A DNA stretch of 63,254 nucleotides, counting the filler, from Fonticula-like sp. SCN 57-25 (taxonomy: Eukaryota), in assembly GCA_001724245.1 (NCBI GenBank). It is 10 parts of 10 records of this genome, joined end to end, with 100 filler letters (N's around TTAATTAATTAA, not from the genome) between each part and the next. Parts side by side here need not be neighbours in the genome. Positions count along the whole stretch, not along the records: positions 1 to 10,808 come from MEDX01000529.1; 9 more parts are not named here. One strand, 5' to 3'. Below, piece after piece: positions 5,108-61,697 of this stretch (within the stretch, counting starts at the first letter, position 1; each line of letters opens with the position of its first letter). A program made the translations under genes and the position numbers. Under the pieces are notes generated by a model that saw only the letters and a program-made list of their open reading frames with translations, searched no databases and was not told where the DNA came from.

Positions 5108-7303
5108 ATGGCGAACAACAGCGATGTGTGCCAGGTGTGCCGGAAGCCGGGGCTTCTTCTCTGCTGCGACACCTGTTCCAACTCGTACCACTTTCATTGC
5201 GCGGGGGTAGACCAGGAGGAGGTCGAAAAGTTGCCCACCTGGTCATGCAGCGAGTGCGAGAGCTTTGAGGCGCCGCCCACACGGTCAGCGCGGGCAGGAT
5301 CGAGCAGCAGCCGCGTCACGCCGAGCCCGAGCTCATCGCGAGCCCCATCTTCACAAGGCGCTGAAGCACCACCCTCGCCGTCGCCCGTGCGTCGGCGCTC
5401 GAGGCCAGAGCCGGCCGCGGCTACCGCATCGCCACCGCGATCGGCACCCGCAGCAGCAGCGCCGAGCACGCCCGAGATCCCGCCGCAAGCCAGCCCTGCA
5501 GCGATTATTCAGTCTCCGCTGCCGGCCACTCCCCCCGCCGCCAACCCGCGCCGGACACCCGCGTCGCGCTCGGTGCGCGGACCGACTAGCGCGCTGTCGT
5601 CTTTCCTTGCCGAATACGGCATCGTCGCGCCGCACGCCGCGAGCATGTACCGGCGGGCATCGCAGCCGACCCACACGGCTCAAACGCCGCCCAATGGAGT
5701 TTCATCGCCCGTCCCCGCTGCTGAGGCGACATCGCCGCCGACACCGAACTACAGCGGCCCGCGCGTCGTCTACCGCGAAGTGTCGGACGATGACGACGAC
5801 GCCGCCTCAACGCCCAGCCGCGGCGGCCGCAAGAGCGGCAGCGGCCGCTCCAAAAAGTCGGACGGCGGAAAGGGAGAAGAAAAGGCGAAAAAGGCGGCCA
5901 AGAAGGCGGCCAAGAAGCGCAAGAAGAGCGGCAAAGGGAGCGACGACGACGGCAGCGACTACTCCGCCTCGAGTGACTCGCCCGACGAGGGCTTCCGCCG
6001 CCCCCGGCGCCGCATTGCAATGTGCGGGCGTTGCGGGACGCCCTTTGAAAACAACATGCTGCGCTGCGCGGTGTGCGCCTCAAGCGCCGCCGAGGGGAAC
6101 GGCCGCTCGCCCGCGCGCCCCAAGCGCAAAGGGCCCGAGGGCAGCATCCTCGGCGACGTCCGCGGCGTCAACCTCCGCATCGCGCGCTCTCTCCAAGAGA
6201 TTTGCGTGCAGACGATCAGCCGGCACATTGGCGAGATCCCTTCGCTCGGCGACGTTCCGCCCGAGACGCTCGTGAGCATCTGCGACCTGACGTGCCGCCT
6301 CCGCTACCTGAACAAGGACACGCTGCGGCTCTTTTTGCAGGACGACATGGAGATGCTCCGCATCATTGACTGCGCTGCGCTCGACGGCAAGGCGCTTGCT
6401 CAGATCGCGGGCGCCGGCGCGACGCTCACATACCTGGAGCTCGGCAACTGCGGCCGCATGACGGGCGACGTTTTGCACTCGGTTCTGTCGGCGATGCCAG
6501 AGCTCACAGACCTCGCACTGTCGGGCCTGTTCCTGCCCGGTGACGATCAGCTTGCCGCCGCCGTTGCGCTGCTGCCGCAGCTGCGCCGCCTCCGCATCGC
6601 CGACTCGCCGTACGTCGGCGCTGCCACGCTCGGGTACCTCGCTGCGAACGCGGCGGACCGCCTGACGAGCCTCAAGCTGCCGGCGTGCGAGGGCGTCAAG
6701 GAGGTCAACATGGGCGACATTGCGCAGCTGGGGCTGCTCGTCGAGCTGTCGCTGGAGCGTTGCTCGTCCCTGACCGATGCGGCGATGGCGCGCCTCTTTG
6801 CGACGCCCTTTGACGCGCTTCAGGTGCTCGACATTAGCGGCTGCGATCTGCTGACCGGCGATGGGTGGACGCTCTCGGGCATGCCGCTCCGCAAGCTGTA
6901 CATGGGCTCGCTGCCGCTCCTCGAGGACGAGCGCATTGCCGACATCCTCGGCGGCATCGACGCGCTCGAAGAGCTCGACCTCGGCGGGTGCGTGCTGCTA
7001 TCAGACGCGTCCGTTGCGCAGGTCGTCGGCGCCAACGCAAAGTCGCTGCGGTCGCTGCGGCTCAACAAGGTGATGCACGCGGGCGAGGGCGCGCTCGAGG
7101 CAATCCTCTCGTGCGCGCGCCTCGAGCACCTCGACGTCTCGTGGGTCCGCGCCGTCGACGGGCCGTTCCTGGAGCGGCTCATCGAGGCCGCCACGGCGCT
7201 CAAGGCCGTCCGCATCTGGGGGGATAATTTGGTGAGCGAGTTTGCGGTGCGCGCGTGCGAGAAGCGCGGCGTTGTCGTCACGGGCTTTGAGGGAAGTTAT
7301 TAG
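5108..7303 (+). CDS. RAD7: Rad7-like nucleotide excision repair LRR protein with N-terminal PHD finger
   Basis: PHD (CQVC..LLCCDTC..YHFHC..WSCSEC); Rad7 signature VRGPTSALSSFLAEYGI; CxxC..CxxC knuckle; BC-box-like SLQEICVQTI; C-terminal LRRs. Intronless. Confidence 0.8.
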   Translation: MANNSDVCQVCRKPGLLLCCDTCSNSYHFHCAGVDQEEVEKLPTWSCSECESFEAPPTRSARAGSSSSRVTPSPSSSRAPSSQGAEAPPSPSPVRRRSRPEPAAATASPPRSAPAAAAPSTPEIPPQASPAAIIQSPLPATPPAANPRRTPASRSVRGPTSALSSFLAEYGIVAPHAASMYRRASQPTHTAQTPPNGVSSPVPAAEATSPPTPNYSGPRVVYREVSDDDDDAASTPSRGGRKSGSGRSKKSDGGKGEEKAKKAAKKAAKKRKKSGKGSDDDGSDYSASSDSPDEGFRRPRRRIAMCGRCGTPFENNMLRCAVCASSAAEGNGRSPARPKRKGPEGSILGDVRGVNLRIARSLQEICVQTISRHIGEIPSLGDVPPETLVSICDLTCRLRYLNKDTLRLFLQDDMEMLRIIDCAALDGKALAQIAGAGATLTYLELGNCGRMTGDVLHSVLSAMPELTDLALSGLFLPGDDQLAAAVALLPQLRRLRIADSPYVGAATLGYLAANAADRLTSLKLPACEGVKEVNMGDIAQLGLLVELSLERCSSLTDAAMARLFATPFDALQVLDISGCDLLTGDGWTLSGMPLRKLYMGSLPLLEDERIADILGGIDALEELDLGGCVLLSDASVAQVVGANAKSLRSLRLNKVMHAGEGALEAILSCARLEHLDVSWVRAVDGPFLERLIEAATALKAVRIWGDNLVSEFAVRACEKRGVVVTGFEGSY

Positions 7304-7435
7304 CATGTGTAGATATTTGTTGCATTTTTAGACACGTTTGTAGTCATTTCGGGCGCGCGTAATTGTAGCGCAATGTCATTTGAGCAATATATTTGGAATT
7401 GAATTCCATCGGAAAGCCTACAAAATAGCTCATAT

Positions 7436-9064
7436 TCAGAGGAGCACCTCGAGAGTGCACTCTGCGATTGGCCTGTTTGCGTCGACGAGCGAGCGCATCG
7501 TGTCGCGCACCTTTGCGAGCTCGACGTCCGACGGCCCCCAGAGCCTGAGCACGGCCGACGAGTGCTGGTCGTTGCTCGGCGCAACGTGCAGCTCCTCGAC
7601 CTCAAAGTCGCACGGGCTGTCCACGGCGAGGTCGAGCAGCCTGTTGAGGAGCGCCTTGTCAAAGAGGTGTCCCTGGACGCGGAAGGCGATTGTGGGCCGC
7701 GCGTCCTCCTGGAGGTGGCTGACCTCGGCGACGGCGGCCATGGCCGCGGCGGCCTCGTACTCTGCGAGGGCGGCGCGCGCGCGCTCAGCCGCGTCCTTGA
7801 CGGTCGGGTTGTCGGTGCCCTGCACGACAAAGGTGGACGACGAGGAGCGCGGCCCGGACGCGAGGCGCATGAGGACCGAGTCGACAAGGTCCATGTTGAG
7901 CGAGCGCTTGTCGGCGAGGTTCTTGATCTTGGTCGTGGCGGCCTTGATCTGGTCCTCGGAGAGGTCGAGCCCAAGCTGCGTCGCGCGGTTCTGCATCGCG
8001 TTCCAGCCAGTGAGGCGGTGCGCGAGTTGGATGCGGCGCTCGACGCCAAAGTCGGCAGGGTCAATCACCTCGTACGACGACGGGTTCGTCATCACCGCCT
8101 TGGAGTGAACGCCGGCCTTGTGCGTAAAGGCGGCGCTCCCGGTAATGTAGTTGTTGAACGGAATGCTCACGCTCACCGCCTGCGCAACGTACTTTTCAAG
8201 GTGGCGGATCAGCGTCAGGTCGTACCGGCCCTTGATGGCCTCCTTGTCAATCGTGTACATGCGGGCAAGGAAGCCGCCCAGCGGCGTGATGCCGTTGCGC
8301 TCGCCAATGCCAAGCACGGTTGTGTCAATGTGCGTGGCGCCGCCCTCGAGCGCCATCAGCGCATTCGCAATGCAGCAGCCAGAGTCATTGTGCGTGTGGA
8401 ACTCGATCCCGGTCGACGGGCGCACAACGCTGCGCACGGCCGCTACAGTGTGCAGAACCTGAGAGGGAGTCGCAATGCCAACGGTGTCGGCGACGCCAAC
8501 GCGATCGACGCCCAGCTTGTCGACCGCCTCGTAGATCCGCAGAATGTCGTCGAGGTTGCTGCGGAAAGAGTCTTCGCACGAGAAGCGGACTTCGAGGCCA
8601 GCGTCTTGTACAAGGCCAATGGCGCGGCGCGCGTCCTCTACAACGGCGTCAATGCCCTTGCCGTGCGAGTGCTTGGCGAGCAGCGGCGACGTCGCCATAT
8701 ACATGTTAATGCCGTGAACGCCCGTCTTGATGGCGATAGAAACGTCGTGCGGATGGCACCGCGTATGCGTCAGGATCTTGGACCGCAGACCGAGCCGCGA
8801 GATCGCCTCGCACTCCTTGGTGGCCTGTTCGCTCGCCGCGGGGTTCATCAGTTCAATGTAGTCAACGCCGATCCGGTCCAGCGTCGTCGCAATGTAGAGC
8901 CGATCCTGGTATGTGAACTCGCCCGTCGCAAATTGTTCGCCTTCCCGCAGCGTAGTGTCAACAACGGCAAAAGTGGGTAGCTTGCGCGATCGAGCGGCCT
9001 CTGCCGCAGCGCGGGCAGCGCTTTGTACTGATCCTACTGTTGATGCGAGCCCTCTCCTCAACAT
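7436..9064 (-). CDS. LYS20: Homocitrate synthase with mitochondrial-type presequence and C-terminal LKR/SDH-interdomain (ACT-like) extension
   Basis: DTTLREGEQ, HTHND, GIGERNG and AFTHKAGVHSKAV..NPSSYE motifs of fungal-type HCS. Arg/Ser/Ala-rich N-terminus. Tail contains QGHLFDKALLNRLLD. Confidence 0.92.
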   Translation of the reverse strand: MLRRGLASTVGSVQSAARAAAEAARSRKLPTFAVVDTTLREGEQFATGEFTYQDRLYIATTLDRIGVDYIELMNPAASEQATKECEAISRLGLRSKILTHTRCHPHDVSIAIKTGVHGINMYMATSPLLAKHSHGKGIDAVVEDARRAIGLVQDAGLEVRFSCEDSFRSNLDDILRIYEAVDKLGVDRVGVADTVGIATPSQVLHTVAAVRSVVRPSTGIEFHTHNDSGCCIANALMALEGGATHIDTTVLGIGERNGITPLGGFLARMYTIDKEAIKGRYDLTLIRHLEKYVAQAVSVSIPFNNYITGSAAFTHKAGVHSKAVMTNPSSYEVIDPADFGVERRIQLAHRLTGWNAMQNRATQLGLDLSEDQIKAATTKIKNLADKRSLNMDLVDSVLMRLASGPRSSSSTFVVQGTDNPTVKDAAERARAALAEYEAAAAMAAVAEVSHLQEDARPTIAFRVQGHLFDKALLNRLLDLAVDSPCDFEVEELHVAPSNDQHSSAVLRLWGPSDVELAKVRDTMRSLVDANRPIAECTLEVLL

Positions 9065-9186: not shown

Positions 9187-9259
9187 GGGGACGTAGCTCA
9201 TATGGTAGAGCGCATGATTTGCATTCCTGAGGTAGGGGGATCGATACCCTCCGTCTCCA
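9187..9259 (+). tRNA. tRNA-Ala(UGC)
   Basis: Cloverleaf with acceptor GGGGACG/CGTCTCC including G3:U70, D-arm GCTC/GAGC, anticodon TGC (one T-C mismatch in the stem) and T-loop ATCGATA typical of eukaryotic Ala. A T5 Pol III terminator follows within ~10 nt. Confidence 0.93.
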
Positions 9260-9584
9260 CTTATCTTTTTGTTCTTTTGTCGCCTCCTTGCCAGGCGACA
9301 CTTTTTGCTATACACCGCAGCGTCATACTGGCGTCGCTATGCGCCGCTTCTTTCGCACATGCACGCGGCATGCACTTCGCGCGAGAGAGCGGGGCTAGCA
9401 AAGAGGAAAAGTGTGATAGGAAAGGTATGCTATGATGATGACATGAGAGCCGTTGAATCGAGGCCAGACCGTTGCCGAATTTAGTCACAGGCACGTGCTA
9501 TTGTTTGGGACAACAAGACGGTCGCCGACGGGCATCGAAGGACGCGGGAGGATCGGCTACTGCTTCCTGATCGCTACAGCCTCC

Positions 9585-41202: not shown

Positions 41203-44200
41203 TAGGGATGAGTCCCGGGAACTTTTGGAGTCCCGCGGGACGTCCCGCGGGACCGCCCAGATCCGTCATAGTCCCGCGGGACTGCTATGGGTACTATGAG
41301 CCGTATCACCCGTATGATGAGCACTATGATGATGGCCTAATATGGAATACTGTACTGAATATATATGCATACTAGTAACCTACAGATGAATATTGGCTTA
41401 GGTGTGACGTACGTGTTAACGAAAATAGCAGTCCTTACAAGCGTATGGAATTTCACTAGTAGGATAATCATGGTTATATCAATAGAGTATCACGATTCAA
41501 GAAAACTACTTACCGGAGGATAATACAAGAGATGCCTCAGCGAGGCTCAAAGAAAGGCGGTTTCTGAGGCGACCGGTTACAAGACCGGCCGCCGAGAAGA
41601 GCCTTTCGGCGGAAGCTGATGATGCATACATACATAAAAAATGTTGAACAAGACTTCTAATAGTGGGATGTGTAAGTGATGAATTTCGAGACCACCAACA
41701 CAAGGGGTCAAACGCATCCGAGTCGGACATCTCGCGTGATGCCCCAATATGGAGGTAGTCTTCCAAAATGGACGTCGCTCGAGTTGACAGCGACGCTTCC
41801 TGATTAATTGGGGGCTCGTCGTCTCCAAAAAGGTCTCGCCATCGATTCAGCCGAGCGTCTGACAAGTCCCGCTTGCCGGCTGGCAGCGGTCGGAAATCGT
41901 TCTCTCGAGGCGGGGTGGTGCCATTTGAATGGCCCACATCCGTGCTCCGCTCGAGCTCACCGACTAGCAACAGTCGCACCGTGTCCTTGACGTTCTCGAA
42001 GAGGCCACTAACCAGCAGCTTCGGCAGAACCTTGATGTAAAGTGGACACAGCAGTGACGCACACAAATAATGGATCGCGTTGGATGAGGCTGGACTCGAA
42101 CGCCTGCCAGTGTGCGGCTCGTTGAAAATGCGAAGAGAAGTCGCTGCTTCTGGGAAGTAGTGCGCGAGGGCCTCCACCAAGCGTTCTGAAAGGGCGCCGC
42201 AATTGTTGGTCAAGCCGGCGCTCTTGAGGCGGCGCAGGCCGGAAACTAGAATGTGAATTTCCGGGATGACTTCGCCGATGCTTGTTGATGCTCTTGAGAG
42301 GACCGACGTTGATCTTTCCGCGAGCTCCAACACTTGGACAAGGTTCGTTGCGTCCTTGGCGACGGCCTCCCATTCATCATAGACTTTCTTAAAGTCGCGG
42401 CGCATTGTTTCCAGCTGGGGATCCAATCCGTCCGCGTCCGGCCGCGCTGCAACCGCGACGTGCTTAACGAGGTCCTGAAAACTCTGCAGCATATCGCTGA
42501 TTTGAGGCTGGATGAGGCGACGGAGCATAAGTAGAGAACTGTTCCACCGTGTCTGAACGTCTAAAACAAAGCCCAGCACAGGTGCTTGCTTGCCCACCAA
42601 CTTGTACTCCTGAACGAGGCGGAGATAATAGAGTCGCTTGGGACTGACGCGCGCCCAGGCGACAAGTTTTCTTGCCGCATCGATGATTGCCTCGAGCGGA
42701 GGAGAGTAGACATGTTCGGGGCGGTCCAGATCGAGGAGGTCCACGGACGATTGGTCATCCGTTAGCTCAATCTCGACCACGTCGGCATCGAGGTCCAACA
42801 GATCGGACACCTCTTCATCGTCTTCATCGGGGTTCTCCGGGTCCCTCGGGGCTATTGGAACTTCCTTGCCCGACAACGCCAACTTGATGGCGAGCTGTAA
42901 CCGGTGTGCAGCACAATAAAAAAATAGAACGTCTGGCTCGTCGATGCTTTGATCGGAATCCTTCTTTAGAAGGAGCGTAGCCTTTTTGCAGTTGGCCGCG
43001 GAATCGTGCGTAAAGGAAACCGTAGGACGAGGCGCGCCAGCTCGAACCTTGCTAAGACCACGTTCTTTCATGATTGTCTTAAGTTGTAAGGCAATTTCCG
43101 CAGCTGTGTGCGGCGGCGGGCTCAGCCTGAAAGCAAGGACGATCGGGCACAAGGTGAAGAAGGGCGTGACAAATCGAGCTGTGACACCTAGAATAGGCTG
43201 TTGGGCATCCGACGTCCAATGATCGAACGCCAGCGCCATCCCCCGAATGTCGACGGCGTCCGCACACCACCTATTGAGACTGGCATTCGCCGCCTCCCGC
43301 GTCTTGGTCTTGAGGGCCTCCGTTGAGGGTACGTCATACGTCGAATTGAGCAGGGCGAAAACAGGCACAAGATCGTTCACCAAAGTGAAAGGACGGTGCC
43401 CCTTGGCCAACATTTCCACTAGCGCATCTGTGACCGCCGCCTTGCTCGCCTCGTTGAGAATACGAGGGGTATGTTTGACTTGCGTGTCCAACGTCGATTG
43501 TTTCTTCTTGTCACTCGGCTTGGCGTCCGGCGCGGGGCTTGCGGCGGTGATACTGTGGTTATTCCGAAGATGTTTGTTGACCCCGGACGTCGACTCACTG
43601 ATGCCGAGATGAAAGGTAGCTTCGCAGTACTTGCACTTGAAAACATTGACAGTGCTGGTGCCGACGGTATGCCGCCGCCAGTGGCCGTTGCCCTCCGTTC
43701 TAGGGATTTCCTCCGTGGTTCCAGTCCCGGCGGTCAGGAGCCTTGTCCGCGACGTCGGGCTTGACGGGGAGGATAGCGAAAGAGTCGGAGATCCTACCGG
43801 CGATGCGTCTGTAAAACTCAGCCGCCTCAGAGTCGGTTGAACGGCGGCAACTGTCCCGTCTGCCGCCCGGGGTTAGTAGTGGTCTGACGCATTCAAATCA
43901 AAATGCACACCGATTTGAGTCGGCGCAGCCTCAGCAGCGGCGGGGGCGTTCCCAATGATAACCAAATCTGGCTCGTCCACCCCCTCCTGATCCAAATTGA
44001 CGACACCGGCAGAGCGCATCGGCACCGCATCGCGGTAGTTCGAGATTGACGGTGCGGAAGAGCCCGCCTGCCCTCTAGCAATGGTGTCACTGCTGTCATA
44101 CACAAAGTCCACTTTACTGTTTTGAGTCCGCTGCCGCTTCGCCGACGTAGCCATGGCGATGATGGCGTCGATGGCGTCGAAGGCGGTCGACGGCGATTCA

Positions 44201-50245: not shown

Positions 50246-51791
50246 TTACTGGGTAGAAATATCCCCGACAATGTACACGGGCCTGTTGTTGTACAGCTTG
50301 GACAGGGCCTTTTCGAGCTTGCCCATCAGGGCGCGTGTCGCGGTCACCTGGTCCTCGATCGCCGCCTTGGCCTCCTCGATCTGCTCGCCCAGCCGCACGC
50401 GACGCTCCTGGCTCGTCACCAAGCGCGCGTTCATGGTCGTTTGGGTCCGCTGGATCAGCTCCAGCTTGGCCGCCAGCATCGCTGCGTAGCTCGCCGAACT
50501 CCGCAGCTGAAGCAACCGCATCACTTTGTCGCTCGTCAAGGCGGCCAGGACGTCAGAGACTATTAAGCAGAGCACGGTAAGCACATCGCCGGTCAATCCA
50601 CACCGCGTACCAAGTTTGTCGTAGGACTTTACGAGCGACGACGACTCGCGCTGCACCGACACCGGGGCATTCTTCTGCATCGTCAAGGTGATGGCGTCCA
50701 TCCGCTGCTTGGCGAGCTCTCCCTGACGCTGCGTCAAAAAGGCGCGCAGCTCGGCCAGCTCGTCAAGCAACATGGCGCGGTGATCCGCGCTGTCCAGCAG
50801 GCTGCTTTGTGCCAGCTCGCCGGTATGCGCGACGACAATCTCGGGCTCGGCGTGGTCGTCCACGGACGCGCCAGCGTCAAAGTCAACGTCCCAGTTGATG
50901 GCCGCGGCGCCGTCGTCGTCCGCGGTGGGAGCGGCGTCCCAGTTGATAGCCGGCGCACTGTTGTCGTCCGCGGCGGGAGCGGCGTCCCAGTCAATTTCAA
51001 TGAGCGCATCGTCGGAAGCGGGCACCAAAGGCGCGTCGGAAACAATCGGGGCGTCTACCTCGTCGAATGTGACTTGCTGCACGCTCCAGTCCTCGGGAAT
51101 TGTAATTGACTCAATGCCAGAAGCGGCAAGCTCGTCGTTTTCTGTTCCCAGAAAACGCGAGAGCGGAGCGTTCCCATTAGCGATCACAAAAGACAGGAGC
51201 GGAAAGGCCGGGCGCTCGCTCGAGGCGTCGACGAATATCGAGTAGTCGCCGTAGTATTCTATAAGGGAGCGGAACTGGTCGCTGCGCACGAGCTCTGCAG
51301 CTTCCGAGAGAAGAGCCGGCAGCTGGTGCACAGAGCTTCGCAGCTCAGCCTGAATATCATTGCCCTGTTCGAGGGTGAGTGTTGATGTCATAGCAAAGTG
51401 AAATGGCGCACCTCGATGCCCCACTGAGAGCAGACAGACTGGAACTTTAGTTTGGCCGCAGCGGCACTCGCGCGGTAATCGTTGTCCTTGCGAGTCAAAT
51501 CCTTCAACTGCTGGTGATAATTGCTGACCTGCTTCTTGAGCGCGGGGCTAACATGGTCGCGCGTTAGACTTGAACCTTACAAGAGGGGCAGCGCACATTT
51601 GGTACATTGCCGCACGCTGGATTTCGGCCGCAGACTCGGCCAAATAAATTCCATCCTTTTCGTAAGCGCGGAGAATCTGTGCCCAGTCGCGCGCGGCCTC
51701 TGACGTAAACTGACCGAGGAACGAAGTAATGCCCGCCTTCTCGCGCACTCGGGCATGGATCCGCTCGCAAGCAAAGTAGTTGAGCGCTGCC
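50246..51791 (-). CDS. CDK5RAP3: CDK5RAP3 / C53 (UFMylation and ER-phagy adaptor), 5' truncated
   Basis: W..I..AYEKDGIYLAE, IDWD/INWD shuffled AIMs, LLDELAELRAFLTQR, LSKLYNNRPVYIVG. Confidence 0.9.
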
Positions 51792-52500: not shown

Positions 52501-52774
52501 GATGCCGCGGTCTGTGCACAGGCGGCGATCGCTGGTTCGAGTTTCGCGCGCTAATTCAATCAATGCCCCTCCAGTGAAATAAAAAGCGCGGGCTTTTTGG
52601 TGATTGGTCTCTTTGGGCCAATCACATCCTTGCGCGCCTTTTTTCGTAGCGCTACTTTCCGCGTCCCTCAACGTTTCAGCGCAGGAATCCGCTTGCCGGG
52701 CCTGCGCTCTTGTTCTTTTTCGTTTCGTTTGCGTGTTACGCCGAGCGTGTGCTTGGTTTTTATATTTCTCGACA

Positions 52775-54322
52775 ATGTTCTTTGTCCAGGAGCTTTTTAC
52801 GCATCACCAAAAGTCGTTGAGCATTGTGTGGCTCGCGGCCCACTGGGACCCTCGCAAGCTTACGCGTGCCAAGATCGCCGGAGCGCAGATCCCCAAGACG
52901 GTGGAGGACATTACCAATAGCTCGCAAAAGCTCTTTTCTCTTCGTCTTTCGGGCACTCTCTTGCTTGGTGTAGCCCGCATCTATTCGCGCAAGGCGCAGT
53001 TTTTGCTAGATGACTGCAGCAATGTCGTGTTCAAGATGCACAATGCTTTCCGCACCGGGCCTGTCGTCGACATGCAAGAGTCGTCCGCGCATGCGAGCAG
53101 CATCACATTGCAGGACGTTTCCATGGACGCTGGTCTGTTGGGCATTGATCTGTACGATCTTCGCCTTCCTTCCTTTGCGGCGGTCGAAATCGGTCGTTCC
53201 TCGCAGCAGCACACCAGCGCTCTTCGTGACATTACAATCGACGATGTGGATCTTTCTATGCGTCGCTCAACGCAGGAGCTCAATGCCTCTTTGATGGACG
53301 ACGACGGTTTTGGTGCCGCTCATCCCGACGAGATGGCCGATCTGAGCGGCCTCGCCCCCCCCATGGATCTCGGTCGCCGCGCCATGACCCCGCCTCGCGG
53401 CGATATGCTCGATCTCGGCATGGACCCCAAGTATTCAGACATGCCGGTGGAAGAAGGCGGTTTTGGAGGCGATAATTATGAGCACGACTCGTCGCTGCTC
53501 AACAACAGTGGCCTCGGCGGCGCCGTTGGGTTTGGTAGCCCCGGTACGCCCGGCGCTCTTTTCTCCCCGCCCCGCCGCACGCTTGAGGGCGACTTTCCCG
53601 AGTCCCCCGCTGGCCAGGCCGCCCCGCCTGCGAAGCGCCGCCGCGTCGCGCAGATGGACAGCTCCCGCCAGCTTTCAAGGGCGTCCATCAAGCGTCAGCT
53701 CGAGGACACCTCTGATATTGTTCGCAAGCGCCTCATGCCCGCCACGGACGCCGAGGCCGCGCATGCCGCCCTGCAGACGCGCTCTGCCGCCGATTCGCTC
53801 CGCCTCCCCTTTTTCGTAATGCTCAACCCCGAGCTCCAGGCCGCCTTGGCCAGCGTGCTCGTGCCTCCCCCGGCATCGGCCCTGCCCGCCTCTGAGCAAG
53901 GCACCGAGCCCGCCACGCCCGCCCGCGCGACGCAGTCGCAGCGCGGCACCGCCGCCACTGGTCCGCTGTCGATGGCGAGCGCGTCGGCCGACCGTTCGTT
54001 CCGCATGGAGGATTCAATGATTGAGGAGACTGGTTTTGGCGGCGACGACGGGTACACGTACGACCCCCTCACCGAGACGCCGTCGATGGACCGCAGCGTG
54101 ATGGCTGAGGCGCCGCTTGTGGCGCTGCCCCCTGTCAGTGTCGAGTGGGTTGACGCTGCTATTGAGGAAGGGCGGGAAACGACGTTCCAAAAGATGGCGC
54201 AGGGCAAGTCGTGCGCCACTGTTGCGGCCGGATTCCACGCGCTGCTCGGCAAGCTTGCCGCGGGCGAAGCCAAGTCGTCGCAGACGGCCGCGTGGGGGGA
54301 AATTCGTGTCATCCCTGTGTAA
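52775..54322 (+). CDS. RAD21: Cohesin kleisin Rad21/Rec8 family
   Basis: MFF..LSIVWLAAHW..KLTR..SLRLSGTLLLGVARIYSRKAQFLLDDC; C-terminal winged helix (F..L..Q..WGEIRV); separase-like site VEIGR. Confidence 0.9.
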   Translation: MFFVQELFTHHQKSLSIVWLAAHWDPRKLTRAKIAGAQIPKTVEDITNSSQKLFSLRLSGTLLLGVARIYSRKAQFLLDDCSNVVFKMHNAFRTGPVVDMQESSAHASSITLQDVSMDAGLLGIDLYDLRLPSFAAVEIGRSSQQHTSALRDITIDDVDLSMRRSTQELNASLMDDDGFGAAHPDEMADLSGLAPPMDLGRRAMTPPRGDMLDLGMDPKYSDMPVEEGGFGGDNYEHDSSLLNNSGLGGAVGFGSPGTPGALFSPPRRTLEGDFPESPAGQAAPPAKRRRVAQMDSSRQLSRASIKRQLEDTSDIVRKRLMPATDAEAAHAALQTRSAADSLRLPFFVMLNPELQAALASVLVPPPASALPASEQGTEPATPARATQSQRGTAATGPLSMASASADRSFRMEDSMIEETGFGGDDGYTYDPLTETPSMDRSVMAEAPLVALPPVSVEWVDAAIEEGRETTFQKMAQGKSCATVAAGFHALLGKLAAGEAKSSQTAAWGEIRVIPV

Positions 54323-57855: not shown

Positions 57856-60800
57856 ATGAGCTCGAGCTGGGAGCAAGCTTGCCTTAAGCTGCTTGACCAC
57901 CTCGAGTCGAATGCGGGCCACACGTCGGAAAAGGTGTGTTTTACTTTGTTGATTGCATTGAACGTCGAAAATTCACATGACTAGGTCAATGTGCTGCTCC
58001 GTACGCTAATTGCGGCCCACGAGCAAGATGCGCAGGAGACGAACCGCCAGCACCAGGCGTTGGAAGATCGTTTCAATGTTGTGGAATCGGAGAGGCTTGC
58101 TCAGATTGCGGAAATGAAGCAGCAACTTGCGGATGAAAACGCTCTTCGGGTGCGCACCGCTGGGGAGTTTGAACACAAGACCAAGCAGCTGCGCGAATGG
58201 ATTTCCACAAAGATCAGCCATTTCGAGCAGCGCAGCATCAGCGAAGCACAGCTGTTGGCAGCGTCCCAGCAGGAGGCGACCAAAGCCCTTGCCGGTGCGC
58301 CGCATAACCTTGTCACCTCCGTCGCCGCGCGTTGTACTTACGAAGCGGTAGATTTGCGGGCGCTGACGGACGAGCGCGATCGACTCAGCGCATCGCTGCG
58401 TACGCAAGAGGCGCGCGTCGCCGAGCTGGAAGCGCTGCGCGGGTCTGCTTCGGCGCCCAAGGCCCCGACTGGTCTCCCGCTCCCGCCTGCGCTGCTGCGT
58501 GCTGCGTCGACGGCAGCCTTGCCGCCGGCCTTGACCAAACCGCCGGCCGCGATCGCGCCCACCAACATGTCGACGATTCACCAGCTCACGGCCGACGTTA
58601 ACATTCTGCGCCACGAGCGCGACATGCTAAAGGACGAGTTGAAGAAGGCCAAGGAGCAGATCGGCTGGCAAGCCGAGGAGATTGAGCAGCTGCGCACTGC
58701 TCTCCTGACGGTACCGACGGACGGTGGCGAGCCGCCGGCAAGCGTTGGGGCTCATTTGCCCTCCTCGGGCTCTGGGTCGTCCGTTTTGGACAGCAACGGA
58801 TCGGCGGTGGACCGCCCGATTAAAAAGGGCGCGCACATGGTGCGCCCTTCGTCGACGAGCGTGATGGTGCATCCGGCCGCCAAGAAGAAGGACAAGAAGG
58901 CTAGCCGCGCCAGTAAGACCGTCAGCGTCTACAATGTGAACATGGCTCGCCAGCCCGTGTTGGAGCGTAGCGGCTACCTGTATAAGCAGGGTGGCAGCGT
59001 CAAGTCGTGGAAGAAGCGCTTTTTTGTCCTCAAGAATAGTAGCCTCTACTACTACAAGACGGAGGAGGACAGCCGCGAGAGCGAAGCTCTCGGCTGCATC
59101 TCGCTCCGCGGAATGGTGAAGGTGTCCAATGGTGTTCAAATGGACACCGACCCGAAACCCAACATGATTTCGATCACGACGCTCACCCGCGTCTACTACC
59201 TCAGCGCGAGCAAGGAAGAGATTATGAATGAGTGGTACGATGCCATCTCGGATTCGATCAAGCTCGCCAGCGTCTCGCCGAGCGTCGTGCAAACCGCCAA
59301 AGAGGACGGCTCTCTTGTGCAGGGTTGGCTGGTGAAGCACAAGCGCGGACTCAGCAACTCACGCTGGGCAGTGCTCAAGCCCCGCGAGCTCCTCTTTTTC
59401 AAGACGGCTATTGTACGCAGCCCCATGCCAAAATCCTGTCGTTTGTGACACTAAATTGGCGAGTTTAGGACATTGAGCCGATTGCGCGCATCCCGCTGAA
59501 GAATGTGTATGGCGTCGAGGTCGTCAATGCAGAGGATGAATCCGACAACGAAGAGTTTGCACGCTTCTCGGACCAGCTGCTGGACTCCGACGGCTCGCAG
59601 CAGTCGCTCGACTCGCACTTTGCCATATTTGCGCACATGGAGAAAGACGGCCGCCGCATGGAGAGCGCTCATTTCCTGGAGGCCCTGACTCCAGAGGACA
59701 TGGAACGTTGGGTGTTCCACTTGAACCTCATTTGCCTCGATCGTGCAAGCAAGCTAAACGACAACGAGCGCGCCATGAAGATTCTGCTCAACGAGGCGGC
59801 GTCGGGGAACACCGAGCCCCCAGTGTCCCTGTGCTTTAGCAAAACGATCTCTGCTCCGCTCACCTCCCTCTCGTCGGACGAGCTGAGGGCCGAGGCAGTG
59901 GAGCTGTTCAAATGTACGCTGGCAACCATGCCCTTTCGCTATACTAACTCTCTGCGCGATAGCCGTCTTCATCTACTCGAGCACGGTGATTGACCCGCGC
60001 GCAGTCGACTATCACATTGCGCTTGCGCAGTTGCTCTGTCGCTCGGCGCTGAGCCGCGTGGAGCTGCGCGACGAGCTCTTTATCCAGCTTGTCAAGCAGA
60101 CAACCAAGCAGCCGTACCCCAACAGCGCGATGACGTATCAGACGTGGCAGCTGATGGCCATTCTCTGCGGCGTCTTCATCCCTGTCCGCCCGATCATCCA
60201 GCAGTATGTGACTGCGCACCTGCGTCGGTTCGCCCCGCTCGACGGCGCGGTCGGCCGGTACGCCGCGTACACCCTTCGTGTTCTTGATCATGAGCTTCGC
60301 GTCGACCCCGCTGTGCTCGGACCGCGCACCCTTCCGCCGTCGCGCACCGAGATCCTGGCCATCATGAAGCTCGAGACGCTCGCGCAGGCCACGTCCACCC
60401 CGCTTCAGATTGACGTGTTCCTCCCGTCAGGCGCGTCCGTGAGCGTGGAGCTGGCTGTCTGCGACCCAGTTCATTTCCTGCTTGACCGCGCGACTCGCAG
60501 CGCCGCCATGTCGCACCGCGTCACCAAGGCGTCCCAGTTTGCCGTCTTTGCCAACGATGGTGCTCATGCAGACATCAGCGTCCGCCTCATGCCCAGCGAG
60601 CGTCTCACCGACGTGCTCTCGCGCTTTGACGTGGAGAAGCGCACGACCAACATGAACGATGGGAGCGGCAAGGACGCCGCCCGCCGCCACGCGTCCTCTC
60701 TGCGGTTTACCGTGCAGCAGTGGCAGTTTTTGCCGGAGAGCGGAGCGTTTGCCCCTGCATTGCAGCGCGCGCGCGCCGTCAATTGCCTTCCGCTTGACAT

Positions 60801-61547
60801 GGTGGACATCCAGGACGTCGGCCCGGCATCGTCGTGGTTTAGCCCCGAGAAGGCGACGGTGTTTGAGCGTGTGATGCTCTTTTCGCTCGCGAACGATGCA
60901 ATTGTGCACAAGCGCATTCCTGTTACACAGCGCGCTGCTGCCGCTCTCGCCGCGTTGCAGGCGCAGGCAGAGTTTGGTGACTACAGGGAAGGCTCGGAGA
61001 CTGTCATCCATGCGGTGCAGCGGTACTGCCCCGAGGACCTCGTAGTTGATGATATTTCAGTTGCCACCGACGGTGCTGCGGGCCCGCTCACCCAGGCCGT
61101 CCAGACAAAGTGGGCGGCGCTCAAGGGCACTGCAGCCGCCACGTGCATTACCGCGTATCTGCACGCGATGCGGAACGCGCCGCTCTTTGGCGCGACTCTC
61201 TTTGCTGTCGAGCCTCTGTCGCCCAGTAGCGAGCTGCCCTCAAAGATGTTCCTCGCAATCTCGCACGATGGCCTTGCCGTTGTCAACAGCGATATGATGA
61301 TCACGGCCGTCTTCAAGTGGAAGAACATTGTTTCGTTTGCTGACTCGGCCGACAGCACATTCGCAATCTTCATAGACATGGCGCCCATCTCCCAGACGGC
61401 GCAGAAAATGATCTTTAAGACCCCTCGTGTACGCGTGTTTTTTACACGTTTTTGGTTAATTCTAACATTCACACACAGCCGAGACAACTGTCGTCGCTTA
61501 TGCATGCATACATCAACGCAGTTATCAAGTCCAAAATGGATTCCTAG
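57856..61547 (+). CDS. Coiled coil-PH-PH-MyTH4-FERM protein (PLEKHH/MAX-1 family)
   Basis: SGYLYKQGGSVKSWKKRFFVL (PH1), GWLVK (PH2), LRDELFIQLVKQT (MyTH4), LQAQAEFGD and PLFGATLF (FERM); 4 introns. Confidence 0.9.
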
Positions 61548-61697
61548 ACTTTCCTTACAATTTATGTGGCCTATTTCGGAGCCACGTGCCTAGTTAAAGA
61601 TTGCTCGAGTCAAGCAGCCGGTTTTAGATCTCGTTCGCATTGCATATGTTGCACGAATGGTGTAAATGTTACATTATATAGAATCAATACAACAGAA

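Follow-up and report, generated by a model that had tools for sequence, protein, structure and literature searches.

A PF04455 (Saccharop_dh_N) Module on the Homocitrate Synthase of a Fonticula-like Eukaryote and Its Relatives: A Candidate Ligand Sensor

Introduction

What could a domain known from saccharopine enzymes be doing at the end of a homocitrate synthase? The question is raised by a gene of Fonticula-like sp. SCN 57-25 (assembly GCA_001724245.1), found in a stretch of 63,254 nucleotides that joins 10 parts of 10 genome records, filler included, and that is called the window throughout. The gene lies on the minus strand at 7436..9064 and encodes homocitrate synthase (HCS), the first enzyme of alpha-aminoadipate lysine synthesis, with a PF04455 (Saccharop_dh_N) module as its C-terminal tail. 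A preliminary description of this DNA had compared the tail to the linker domain of plant LKR/SDH (bifunctional lysine-ketoglutarate reductase/saccharopine dehydrogenase), and had proposed for it either an allosteric sensor or a docking function. According to a 2022 paper (PMC9860122), HCS "lacks the regulatory domains", and lysine inhibits it by competition at the active site. The plant LKR/SDH interdomain was called in 2010 conserved for a reason "not yet understood", in an excerpt of a paper that also assigns to LKR/SDH the control of lysine breakdown in cereal grain (PMC3017810).

We find that the window gene is one ordinary member of an uncharacterised clade of fused eukaryotic HCS. We tentatively read the tail as a ligand-sensing regulatory module, most likely for lysine, and regard this as a serious possibility rather than a probability.

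Results

A homocitrate synthase with an additional C-terminal module

The gene is a complete, intron-less coding sequence, read as a single uninterrupted open reading frame (ORF) of 542 amino acids (aa) plus the stop codon. The whole protein scores 431.8 bits against the NCBIfam equivalog model TIGR02146 (LysS_fung_arch; cut-off 413.55), and it scores far under the cut-offs of the NCBIfam models for NifV, LeuA and citramalate synthase. A fold search with the whole model returned HCS of Schizosaccharomyces pombe (3mi3, 3ivs; 53% identity) and of Thermus thermophilus (2zyf, 3a9i; 46–51% identity), together with the catalytic fragment of Sulfolobus acidocaldarius HCS; in a separate alignment the first two score 457 and 400 bits, respectively. 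Residues E221, H223 and H225, which we take to be of the kind that serves as metal ligands in HCS, align with identical residues in the S. pombe and T. thermophilus enzymes, and H223 and H225 are invariant across 55 fused sequences. In S. pombe HCS, H224 and H226 presumably bind the metal. Judged by its sequence, the window gene is a true homocitrate synthase.

The catalytic part consists of an HMGL-like TIM-barrel domain (residues 33–293; 8186..8968, minus strand, as are all features of the gene; Pfam PF00682, E = 6.5e-72), which carries the derived residues A81, N120 and G219 discussed below, and of the HCS_D2 post-barrel subdomain (residues 307–387; 7904..8146; PF22617, E = 5.7e-34). Onto this core are added about 140 C-terminal residues, a long helical spacer followed by the 87-residue module. 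The linker, as delimited by the AlphaFold secondary structure, spans residues 388–455 (7700..7903), and unfused homologues cease aligning near residue 400. Within the linker the model predicts a long Ala-rich helix at residues 420–451 (7712–7807), in agreement with the Ala-rich helix reported earlier. The module itself occupies residues 456–542 (7439..7699), so that 7436–7700 on the minus strand corresponds to these residues together with the stop codon.

Family and fold of the tail

The tail is matched by Pfam PF04455 at residues 462–527 when the whole protein is scanned (38.0 bits versus a gathering threshold of 23.5; E = 2.4e-9), and a scan restricted to the final 124 aa gives 41.2 bits (E = 2.3e-10); the match is far beyond chance. 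Pfam also describes this family as the LOR/SDH conserved region. With TIGR02146 and PF04455 both above their thresholds, the description of an HCS with this tail at 7436–7700 stands, and the tail peptide quoted there, IAFRVQGHLFDKALLNRLLDLAVDSPCDFEVEELHV...SSAVLRL, is present in the ORF. In a Pfam scan of the tail at E up to 10, the only other match was a sub-threshold one to Gasdermin_C, and no family of the ACT or RAM type was matched.

A full-length AlphaFold model built on an alignment of 55 fused homologues has a mean predicted local distance difference test score (pLDDT) of 86.5. The modelled tail contains strands at 458–465, 486–493, 502–509 and 537–541 and helices at 468–482 and 513–534, in the order beta-alpha-beta-beta-alpha-beta, and a model of the tail alone reaches pLDDT 93 and a predicted TM-score (pTM) of 0.79. 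Its best match in the PDB is the Saccharop_dh_N domain of MJ1480 (3mgj, whose title names it as a domain of this protein; TM-score 0.78–0.82, root-mean-square deviation (rmsd) 2.1–2.2 Å), and AgrE/ArgZ chains match with TM-scores of 0.62–0.72 and rmsd of 1.3–2.6 Å. A profile of eleven tails, compared with the PDB, found AgrE/ArgZ at E-values of 2.4e-10 to 3e-10 and MJ1480 at 2.6e-8. The match to the ACT domain 3ibw is moderate (TM-score 0.62 by query and 0.69 by target, E = 2.3e-4), and that of the tail profile to the valine-binding ACT subunit IlvH (2f1f) is weak (E = 0.006). ACT domains such as those of IlvH and of the GTP pyrophosphokinase 3ibw share with the tail the beta-alpha-beta-beta-alpha-beta order and a conserved junction of strand 1 and helix 1. 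On the evidence of the models, "ACT-like" thus seems a fairly apt description of the fold; membership in the ACT family is not established, because no ACT-type Pfam model matched. The match to PF04455/ACT that had been anticipated is therefore found in its PF04455 part and in the ACT/ferredoxin-like topology, and not in its ACT-family part.

Conservation within the tail

Six residues of the tail (G465, H466, D469, N474, D478 and V481) are invariant in the 55 fused sequences, and L467, F468, F487 and S502 are at least 90% conserved. Modules that come from neither HCS nor LKR/SDH retain five of these positions (G465, H466, D469, D478 and S502), each in 27 or 28 of 28 cases. The tail motif, GHLFD at residues 465–469 (7658–7672), sits at the junction of strand 1 and helix 1, which in ACT domains is the site of ligand binding. 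This polar conservation pattern would fit a binding site better than a passive spacer, and Asp469 and Asp478 would suit a basic ligand.

Other proteins with the module

A profile search of 1.84 billion representatives gave 556 proteins at E up to 0.001, and 59 of the 150 listed were scanned with Pfam. The scanned matches comprise fragments of HCS, as well as another full-length fused HCS (P0155); LKR/SDH proteins in which the module separates the two halves (P0189, P0194, P0222, P0243, P0257 and others); 14 proteins with the module N-terminal to ArgZ-like ornithine cyclodeaminase domains; a 443-aa protein with two tandem modules followed by a DDAH-like amidinotransferase domain (P0151); a 294-aa protein with two tandem modules followed by an OHCU decarboxylase domain (P0163); and short proteins with the PF04455 module alone. 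The host enzymes act mostly on lysine, ornithine or arginine. A small domain with a polar motif that moves between unrelated catalytic folds, alone or doubled, is behaving, we infer, as regulatory ligand-binding modules typically do. When longer proteins were searched with the tail by word index, fused HCS alone were recovered (9 proteins of 177 candidates).

The short matches call for caution. Among 42 that were inspected (Met start, 85–130 aa), many resemble N-terminal fragments of ornithine cyclodeaminase with garbled ends, and five are fragments of the HCS tail type. Stand-alone PF04455 genes had been considered as a set for neighbourhood analysis and were dropped, since many of them look like fragments. 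A check of 25 fragments gave HCS as the best local BLAST match, with the alignment reaching the HCS linker in 12 and covering the module only in 13; two of the 25, P0268 and P0250, are not HCS fragments.

The prokaryotic relatives of known structure are the PF04455 domains of ArgZ/AgrE and of ornithine cyclodeaminases (TIGR00300; 6juy, 6lrf-h, 3mgj). They share with the tail the family, the fold, the G-H-x-x-D motif, D478 and S502, and differ in having Ile for Phe468, Gly-Gly for Pro/Cys484–485, and Gly527. In contrast to the fused HCS, their domain is N-terminal or internal and their substrates are ornithine and arginine. A tie between the conserved His and the nickel-pincer cofactor of ornithine cyclodeaminases was considered and set aside, the excerpt used of PMC13524815 being silent on the domain.

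A subtype shared with the LKR/SDH interdomain

The likeness to the LKR/SDH interdomain proves to be specific. HCS tails carry Phe468 in 26 of 27 cases and LKR/SDH interdomains in 8/8, the other types having mostly Ile (17/28); Asn474 is present in 27/27 and 8/8, respectively, and in 9/28 of the other PF04455 types; Cys485 is present in 21/27 and 6/8, the others having mostly Gly (18/28). The last strand, A-x-[CA]-T-[LM], can be aligned only between HCS tails and LKR/SDH interdomains. By these sequence criteria, which bear out the resemblance first noted for the window protein, the two belong to the same subtype, named here "GHLFD" after its motif; both are found on lysine enzymes. The interdomain is unlike the HCS tail in its place between two catalytic halves instead of at the C-terminus, in its catabolic host, and at two positions: position 481 is Val in 26/27 HCS tails versus Glu in 8/8 LKR/SDH, and position 470 is Lys in 20/27 versus Ser in 6/8.

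A tree of 63 modules (87 columns) places the HCS tails in one group (support 92 in a quick run, 75/86 in a careful one). The quick run also has a branch, supported at 95, that separates HCS tails and LKR/SDH from all other types; this branch alone does not prove closer kinship, because the tree is unrooted. Approximately unbiased (AU) tests were uninformative (p-AU = 0.366 for HCS with LKR/SDH without P0182), and a second AU test restated that LKR/SDH and P0182 form a group (support 74/76). Since three groups on an unrooted tree give no relative closeness, we prefer the column-by-column comparison. The direction of transfer is not established, and the earlier wording of a domain "grafted from" the saccharopine enzymes is not supported.

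Module-bearing LKR/SDH proteins were found in diatoms (Nitzschia, Thalassiosira, Seminavis) and oomycetes (Phytophthora, Pythium, Aphanomyces, Plasmopara), and Atlas cluster labels also put them in Streptophyta. The Atlas cluster nearest to residues 455–542 contains 53 proteins from eukaryotes, haptophytes for the most part, with lengths near 450 aa (TM-score 0.88 over 87 residues), and its automatic labels are 100% PF00701 (dihydrodipicolinate synthase, DHDPS) and 100% PF04455; a DHDPS fusion was sought among the stored matches and none was found. An Atlas feature search with PF04455 excluded gave no usable match, and otherwise it gave only bacterial PF04455 clusters (at most 0.87), which we treat as a lead.

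Distribution and a single gain of the fusion

The 120 best homologues of the window protein served as the sample for the distribution. The tail is present in 56 of them, 55 with a precomputed PF04455 assignment and P0047 by motif. The lineages named among the fused HCS are choanoflagellates (Monosiga brevicollis, Salpingoeca rosetta), an ichthyosporean, chlorarachniophytes and euglenids; the named sequences further include Creolimax (CFRG), Colp12, Lotharella, Amorphochlora, Norrisiella and Euglena. The tail is absent from the fungal HCS of the sample (Mucor, Cokeromyces and others) and from those of Capsaspora, Corallochytrium and Chromosphaera (Nk52). Together with the excerpt from PMC9860122, this survey upholds the statement that fungal HCS is inhibited by lysine at the active site and has no such module.

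In a core-only tree, from which the tail columns were left out, one branch splits the 56 fused from the 64 unfused sequences with a Shimodaira–Hasegawa (SH)-like support of 97, so that one change accounts for the distribution. With 27 bacterial sequences added, the fused group remains one side of a branch (support 99). In an IQ-TREE analysis of a balanced set of 68 rows, the 28 fused rows group with an SH-like approximate likelihood ratio test (SH-aLRT) value of 98, and fused rows together with their unfused sister group with 99.7. The HCS trees either have no root or take a single distant bacterial leaf as root, and bacteria may be present among the unnamed "unfused" rows. Because all sequences outside the fused clade are without the tail, the simplest history is a single acquisition on the stem of that clade.

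Prokaryotic HCS were collected by a scan that gave 600 pattern matches, all but 13 of which (587) could be confirmed; the 80 highest-ranking ones (53–58% identity) were retained. The closest come from Chloroflexota, Acidobacteriota and Planctomycetota, and their matches end at residues 386–436 of the query. A hidden Markov model (HMM) of the tail found no match in the 80 bacterial HCS ORFs or in six-frame translations of the same loci. When the same prokaryotic contig collection was scanned with the tail alignment, none of 36 pattern matches was confirmed; no close prokaryotic relative of the HCS-type tail was found at that sensitivity. One of the 80 loci, in a metagenome-assembled genome of Fimbriimonadia (L053:2483-4813, plus strand), has a 777-aa ORF in which HMGL-like and HCS_D2 domains are followed directly by an aconitase-family domain (E = 2e-97). 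Either the first two enzymes of the lysine pathway are fused here, or a stop or frameshift was missed.

Tandem duplicated modules occur in 5 of the 120 HCS homologues (P0023 of Euglena, P0026, P0027, P0029 and P0045), all of the euglenid type and with the GHLFD motif. Two second copies, those of P0023 and P0026, were included in the domain tree, where they group together (SH-aLRT 95), as would fit one duplication.

As a further observation, eukaryotic HCS falls into two lineages, a fungal type with Asp120 and a protist type with Asn120, with or without the tail. Bacterial HCS interleave with fungal-type rows, and bacteria do not form one group (5–6 changes). Bacterial sequences may be hidden among the unnamed rows; alternatively, each of the two eukaryotic lineages may have arisen on its own.

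Changes in the catalytic core of the fused branch

Among the core columns, only positions 81 and 219 separate the 56 fused from the 64 unfused proteins cleanly. Position 81 is Ala in 52/56 fused and Ser in 61/64 unfused proteins. Position 219 (codon at 8408..8410) is Gly in 54/56 fused and Asp in 64/64 unfused proteins. Position 120 (codon at 8705..8707) is Asn in 50/56 fused proteins; among the unfused, 38/64 have Asp and 24/64 Asn. Residue counts for bacterial relatives refer to 79 of the 80 loci, the 777-aa ORF having been left out: Ser81 is found in 79/79, Asp120 in 79/79, Glu221 in 79/79, and position 219 is Asp in 76/79 and Gly in 3/79. Since the bacterial relatives carry Ser81 and, with the three exceptions, Asp219, Ala81 and Gly219 are derived.

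The order of events can be followed through the outgroups. Capsaspora, Corallochytrium and Nk52 belong to the 23 unfused rows that form the sister group of the fused clade; this group has S81 and D219, with N120 in 21 and Gln in 2. Next outward are three rows in which A81 and N120 are combined with D219, followed by bacteria, which have Asp at both 120 and 219. The residue states thus place D120N first, and the tail, D219G and S81A jointly later.

The HCS of S. pombe and T. thermophilus, both crystallised with lysine (3mi3, 3a9i), have Asp at 120 and 219. In the alignment to the solved enzymes, position 219 shares its strand with H223 and H225 and precedes E221 by two residues and H223 by four; from strand geometry it would face the same side of the strand as E221 and H223. 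The S. pombe residue aligned with N120 is presumably Asp123, and a D123N mutant of that enzyme reportedly loses lysine inhibition.

Comparison with known systems

The fungal and Thermus enzymes (S. pombe Lys4, 3ivs/3mi3; T. thermophilus, 2ztj/3a9i; yeast Lys20/21) have the same catalytic core as the window HCS; unlike it, they end near residue 400 without a tail and have Asp at the positions of N120 and G219. A small C-terminal domain is also found in S. acidocaldarius HCS, where it is called RAM and is removable, as the title of 6ktq, "SaHCS(dRAM)", indicates. This RAM domain is said to bind lysine. The Sulfolobus enzyme differs in being archaeal, its catalytic domain is 32% identical, and the window tail has no RAM or ACT match in Pfam. 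No HCS RAM chain was among the PDB matches of the tail profile at E up to 10. The two domains are likely to have been acquired independently.

LeuA and CimA belong to the same superfamily and have a C-terminal allosteric domain that binds the end product and acts through an accessory subdomain, according to the excerpt from PMC9860122. They offer the closest analogy for the way in which the tail could act. Their regulatory domain is of a different family, with no such Pfam match in the tail, and the alignments of the LeuA and CimA NCBIfam models to the window protein end at residues 386–402.

The N-terminus and the rest of the window

Residues 1–32 (8969..9064) form a presequence-like extension with six Arg/Lys and one Asp/Glu, in which a helix at 3–25 is predicted at low pLDDT. 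Fused homologues have a similar extension (n = 52), with medians of 37.5 aa in length, six basic residues and one acidic residue; extensions are present in many unfused homologues too, and the S. pombe homologue is named "Homocitrate synthase, mitochondrial" in the PDB. Mitochondrial import of the window HCS, as suggested before, is plausible.

A tRNA-Ala gene with anticodon TGC, the sole tRNA in the window, lies at 9187–9260 on the plus strand, 123 bp upstream of the HCS start and on the opposite strand. The convergent neighbour at 5108–7303 (plus strand) encodes 731 aa; a PHD finger lies at the N-terminus and leucine-rich repeats (Zer-1-like) at the C-terminus, and there are long stretches rich in Pro/Ala/Ser and in Lys. 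Here 132 comparatively AT-rich bp (7304–7435) separate its stop codon from that of the HCS gene. Further ORFs encode CDK5RAP3 (50246–51424, minus), a Rad21/Rec8 N-terminus (52604–54322, plus) and a MyTH4-FERM tail (59986–61593, plus), and because of these we regard the window as eukaryotic nuclear DNA. Alpha/beta hydrolase, EH and PH proteins are also encoded. A 661-aa ORF at 41506–43491 (minus) ends in a dimerisation domain of hAT-family transposases (E = 2.8e-10) and may be a transposon or a domesticated transposase. G+C content is 51–66% per 2-kb window, and this, together with the long uninterrupted ORFs, suggests few introns. No other lysine gene was found among the 14 large ORFs of the window that were scanned.

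Discussion

The function of the tail

In the reading that we tentatively prefer, the tail would sense a small molecule, most likely lysine, with which the pathway ends, or a similar basic amino acid. The ligand would be bound at the junction of strand 1 and helix 1, at the invariant Gly-His-x-x-Asp. In the HCS homodimer the tails of the two subunits would pair, and the helix at 420–451 would carry the signal to the dimeric catalytic core, by analogy with the leucine control of isopropylmalate synthase (PMC9860122, in excerpt). Such allosteric feedback would supplement or replace the competitive active-site inhibition by lysine that is seen in fungal and Thermus HCS. Lysine appears the likeliest ligand, because the GHLFD subtype is found on lysine-making and lysine-breaking enzymes and HCS is the lysine-controlled step. 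A broader proposal seems to us doubtful, if still worth stating: GHLFD-type PF04455 would be a eukaryote-wide lysine sensor, joined independently to HCS, haptophyte DHDPS and LKR/SDH, and in HCS feedback would have moved from the pocket to the appended domain, with D219G following D120N. HCS and DHDPS, the latter being the first committed enzyme of the other lysine pathway, are both feedback-inhibited by lysine, as stated in an excerpt of PMC10464499.

Several observations weigh against these proposals. The OHCU decarboxylase host has no evident tie to basic amino acids, and the tail lacks the Pfam matches to ACT and RAM families reported above. In the fold search, dimerisation domains of M20 peptidases, which bind no ligands, rank next after PF04455 structures (TM-scores 0.59–0.76). 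The fusion of DHDPS with PF04455 rests on automatic cluster labels and is treated here as a lead. As far as sequences go, the link between the tail and D219G is a single branch and a single event, not a replicated correlation, and N120 also occurs in the 24 unfused HCS noted above.

The M20 matches lead to a different explanation, which we consider unlikely: the tail could be a ligand-free oligomerisation or scaffold domain that alters the quaternary state or the stability of the HCS dimer, for example by turning dimers into tetramers. The domains concerned (M20 peptidase/carbamoylase; 6c0d, 4ewt, 2v8d) score equal to or above the ACT domain 3ibw against the tail model, and an M20_dimer match in Atlas reaches a TM-score of 0.83. 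Moreover, the PF04455 domain of AgrE/ArgZ lies inside a large multi-domain enzyme, and the tandem duplication in euglenid HCS could serve pairing alone. However, structural interfaces rarely hold an invariant polar Gly-His-x-x-Asp, Asn, Asp and Ser across unrelated partners, and the module occurs N-terminally, internally and C-terminally on unrelated catalytic folds. About equally improbable, in our view, is a sensor of some other metabolite, such as 2-oxoglutarate, saccharopine, alpha-aminoadipate, ornithine, arginine or a nucleotide-type cofactor. The ornithine cyclodeaminases and arginine dihydrolases that bear PF04455 would agree with such a ligand, as would LKR/SDH, with 2-oxoglutarate and saccharopine among its substrates, and the V481 and K470 of HCS tails, as opposed to E and S in LKR/SDH, could signal that the two bind different molecules. 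Against this stand the logic of end-product feedback on the first committed enzyme, which is the commonest, the known inhibition of HCS and DHDPS by lysine (PMC10464499, in excerpt), and the features exclusive to HCS tails and LKR/SDH, which point to a ligand common to lysine synthesis and breakdown.

The docking function that had been proposed as an alternative, in which the tail would pair with the same module on saccharopine enzymes, or with another partner, to form a metabolon for channelling, has in our opinion a slim chance. The shared GHLFD subtype and the common pairing of ferredoxin-like domains speak for it; yet the named organisms with module-bearing LKR/SDH differ from the named organisms with fused HCS, none being shown with both, HCS and the saccharopine enzymes act at opposite ends of the pathway, and no second PF04455 ORF exists in the window (1 of 631 ORFs, the HCS gene itself). 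As to an assembly or gene-prediction artefact, or a decaying remnant, we found no point in its support and give it practically no credence: the ORF is uninterrupted, the identical protein is present on three contigs, the sequence is colinear with 55 other fused proteins through linker and tail with the key residues invariant, and the tail is modelled with confidence (pLDDT 93).

Implications

The fusion is less unusual than the preliminary description implied: 56 of the 120 best homologues share the architecture, which is precomputed and visible in public databases, and UniRef names such proteins simply "homocitrate synthase". Our literature search returned no description of an HCS–PF04455 fusion, of an HCS with a RAM domain, or of Saccharop_dh_N paired with HCS or DHDPS, and a paper on aminoadipate in choanoflagellates does not, in the excerpts used, mention a tail on HCS. 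A whole clade of eukaryotic HCS, including those of the closest unicellular relatives of animals, thus departs from the description of HCS as an enzyme without regulatory domains, as given in the excerpt of PMC9860122. If the tail is indeed a lysine sensor, this would suggest a function for the interdomain of plant LKR/SDH. It would also provide a compact, transferable lysine-responsive domain, possibly useful for biosensors and pathway engineering, and a clear case of feedback control that shifted from an active site to an added domain.

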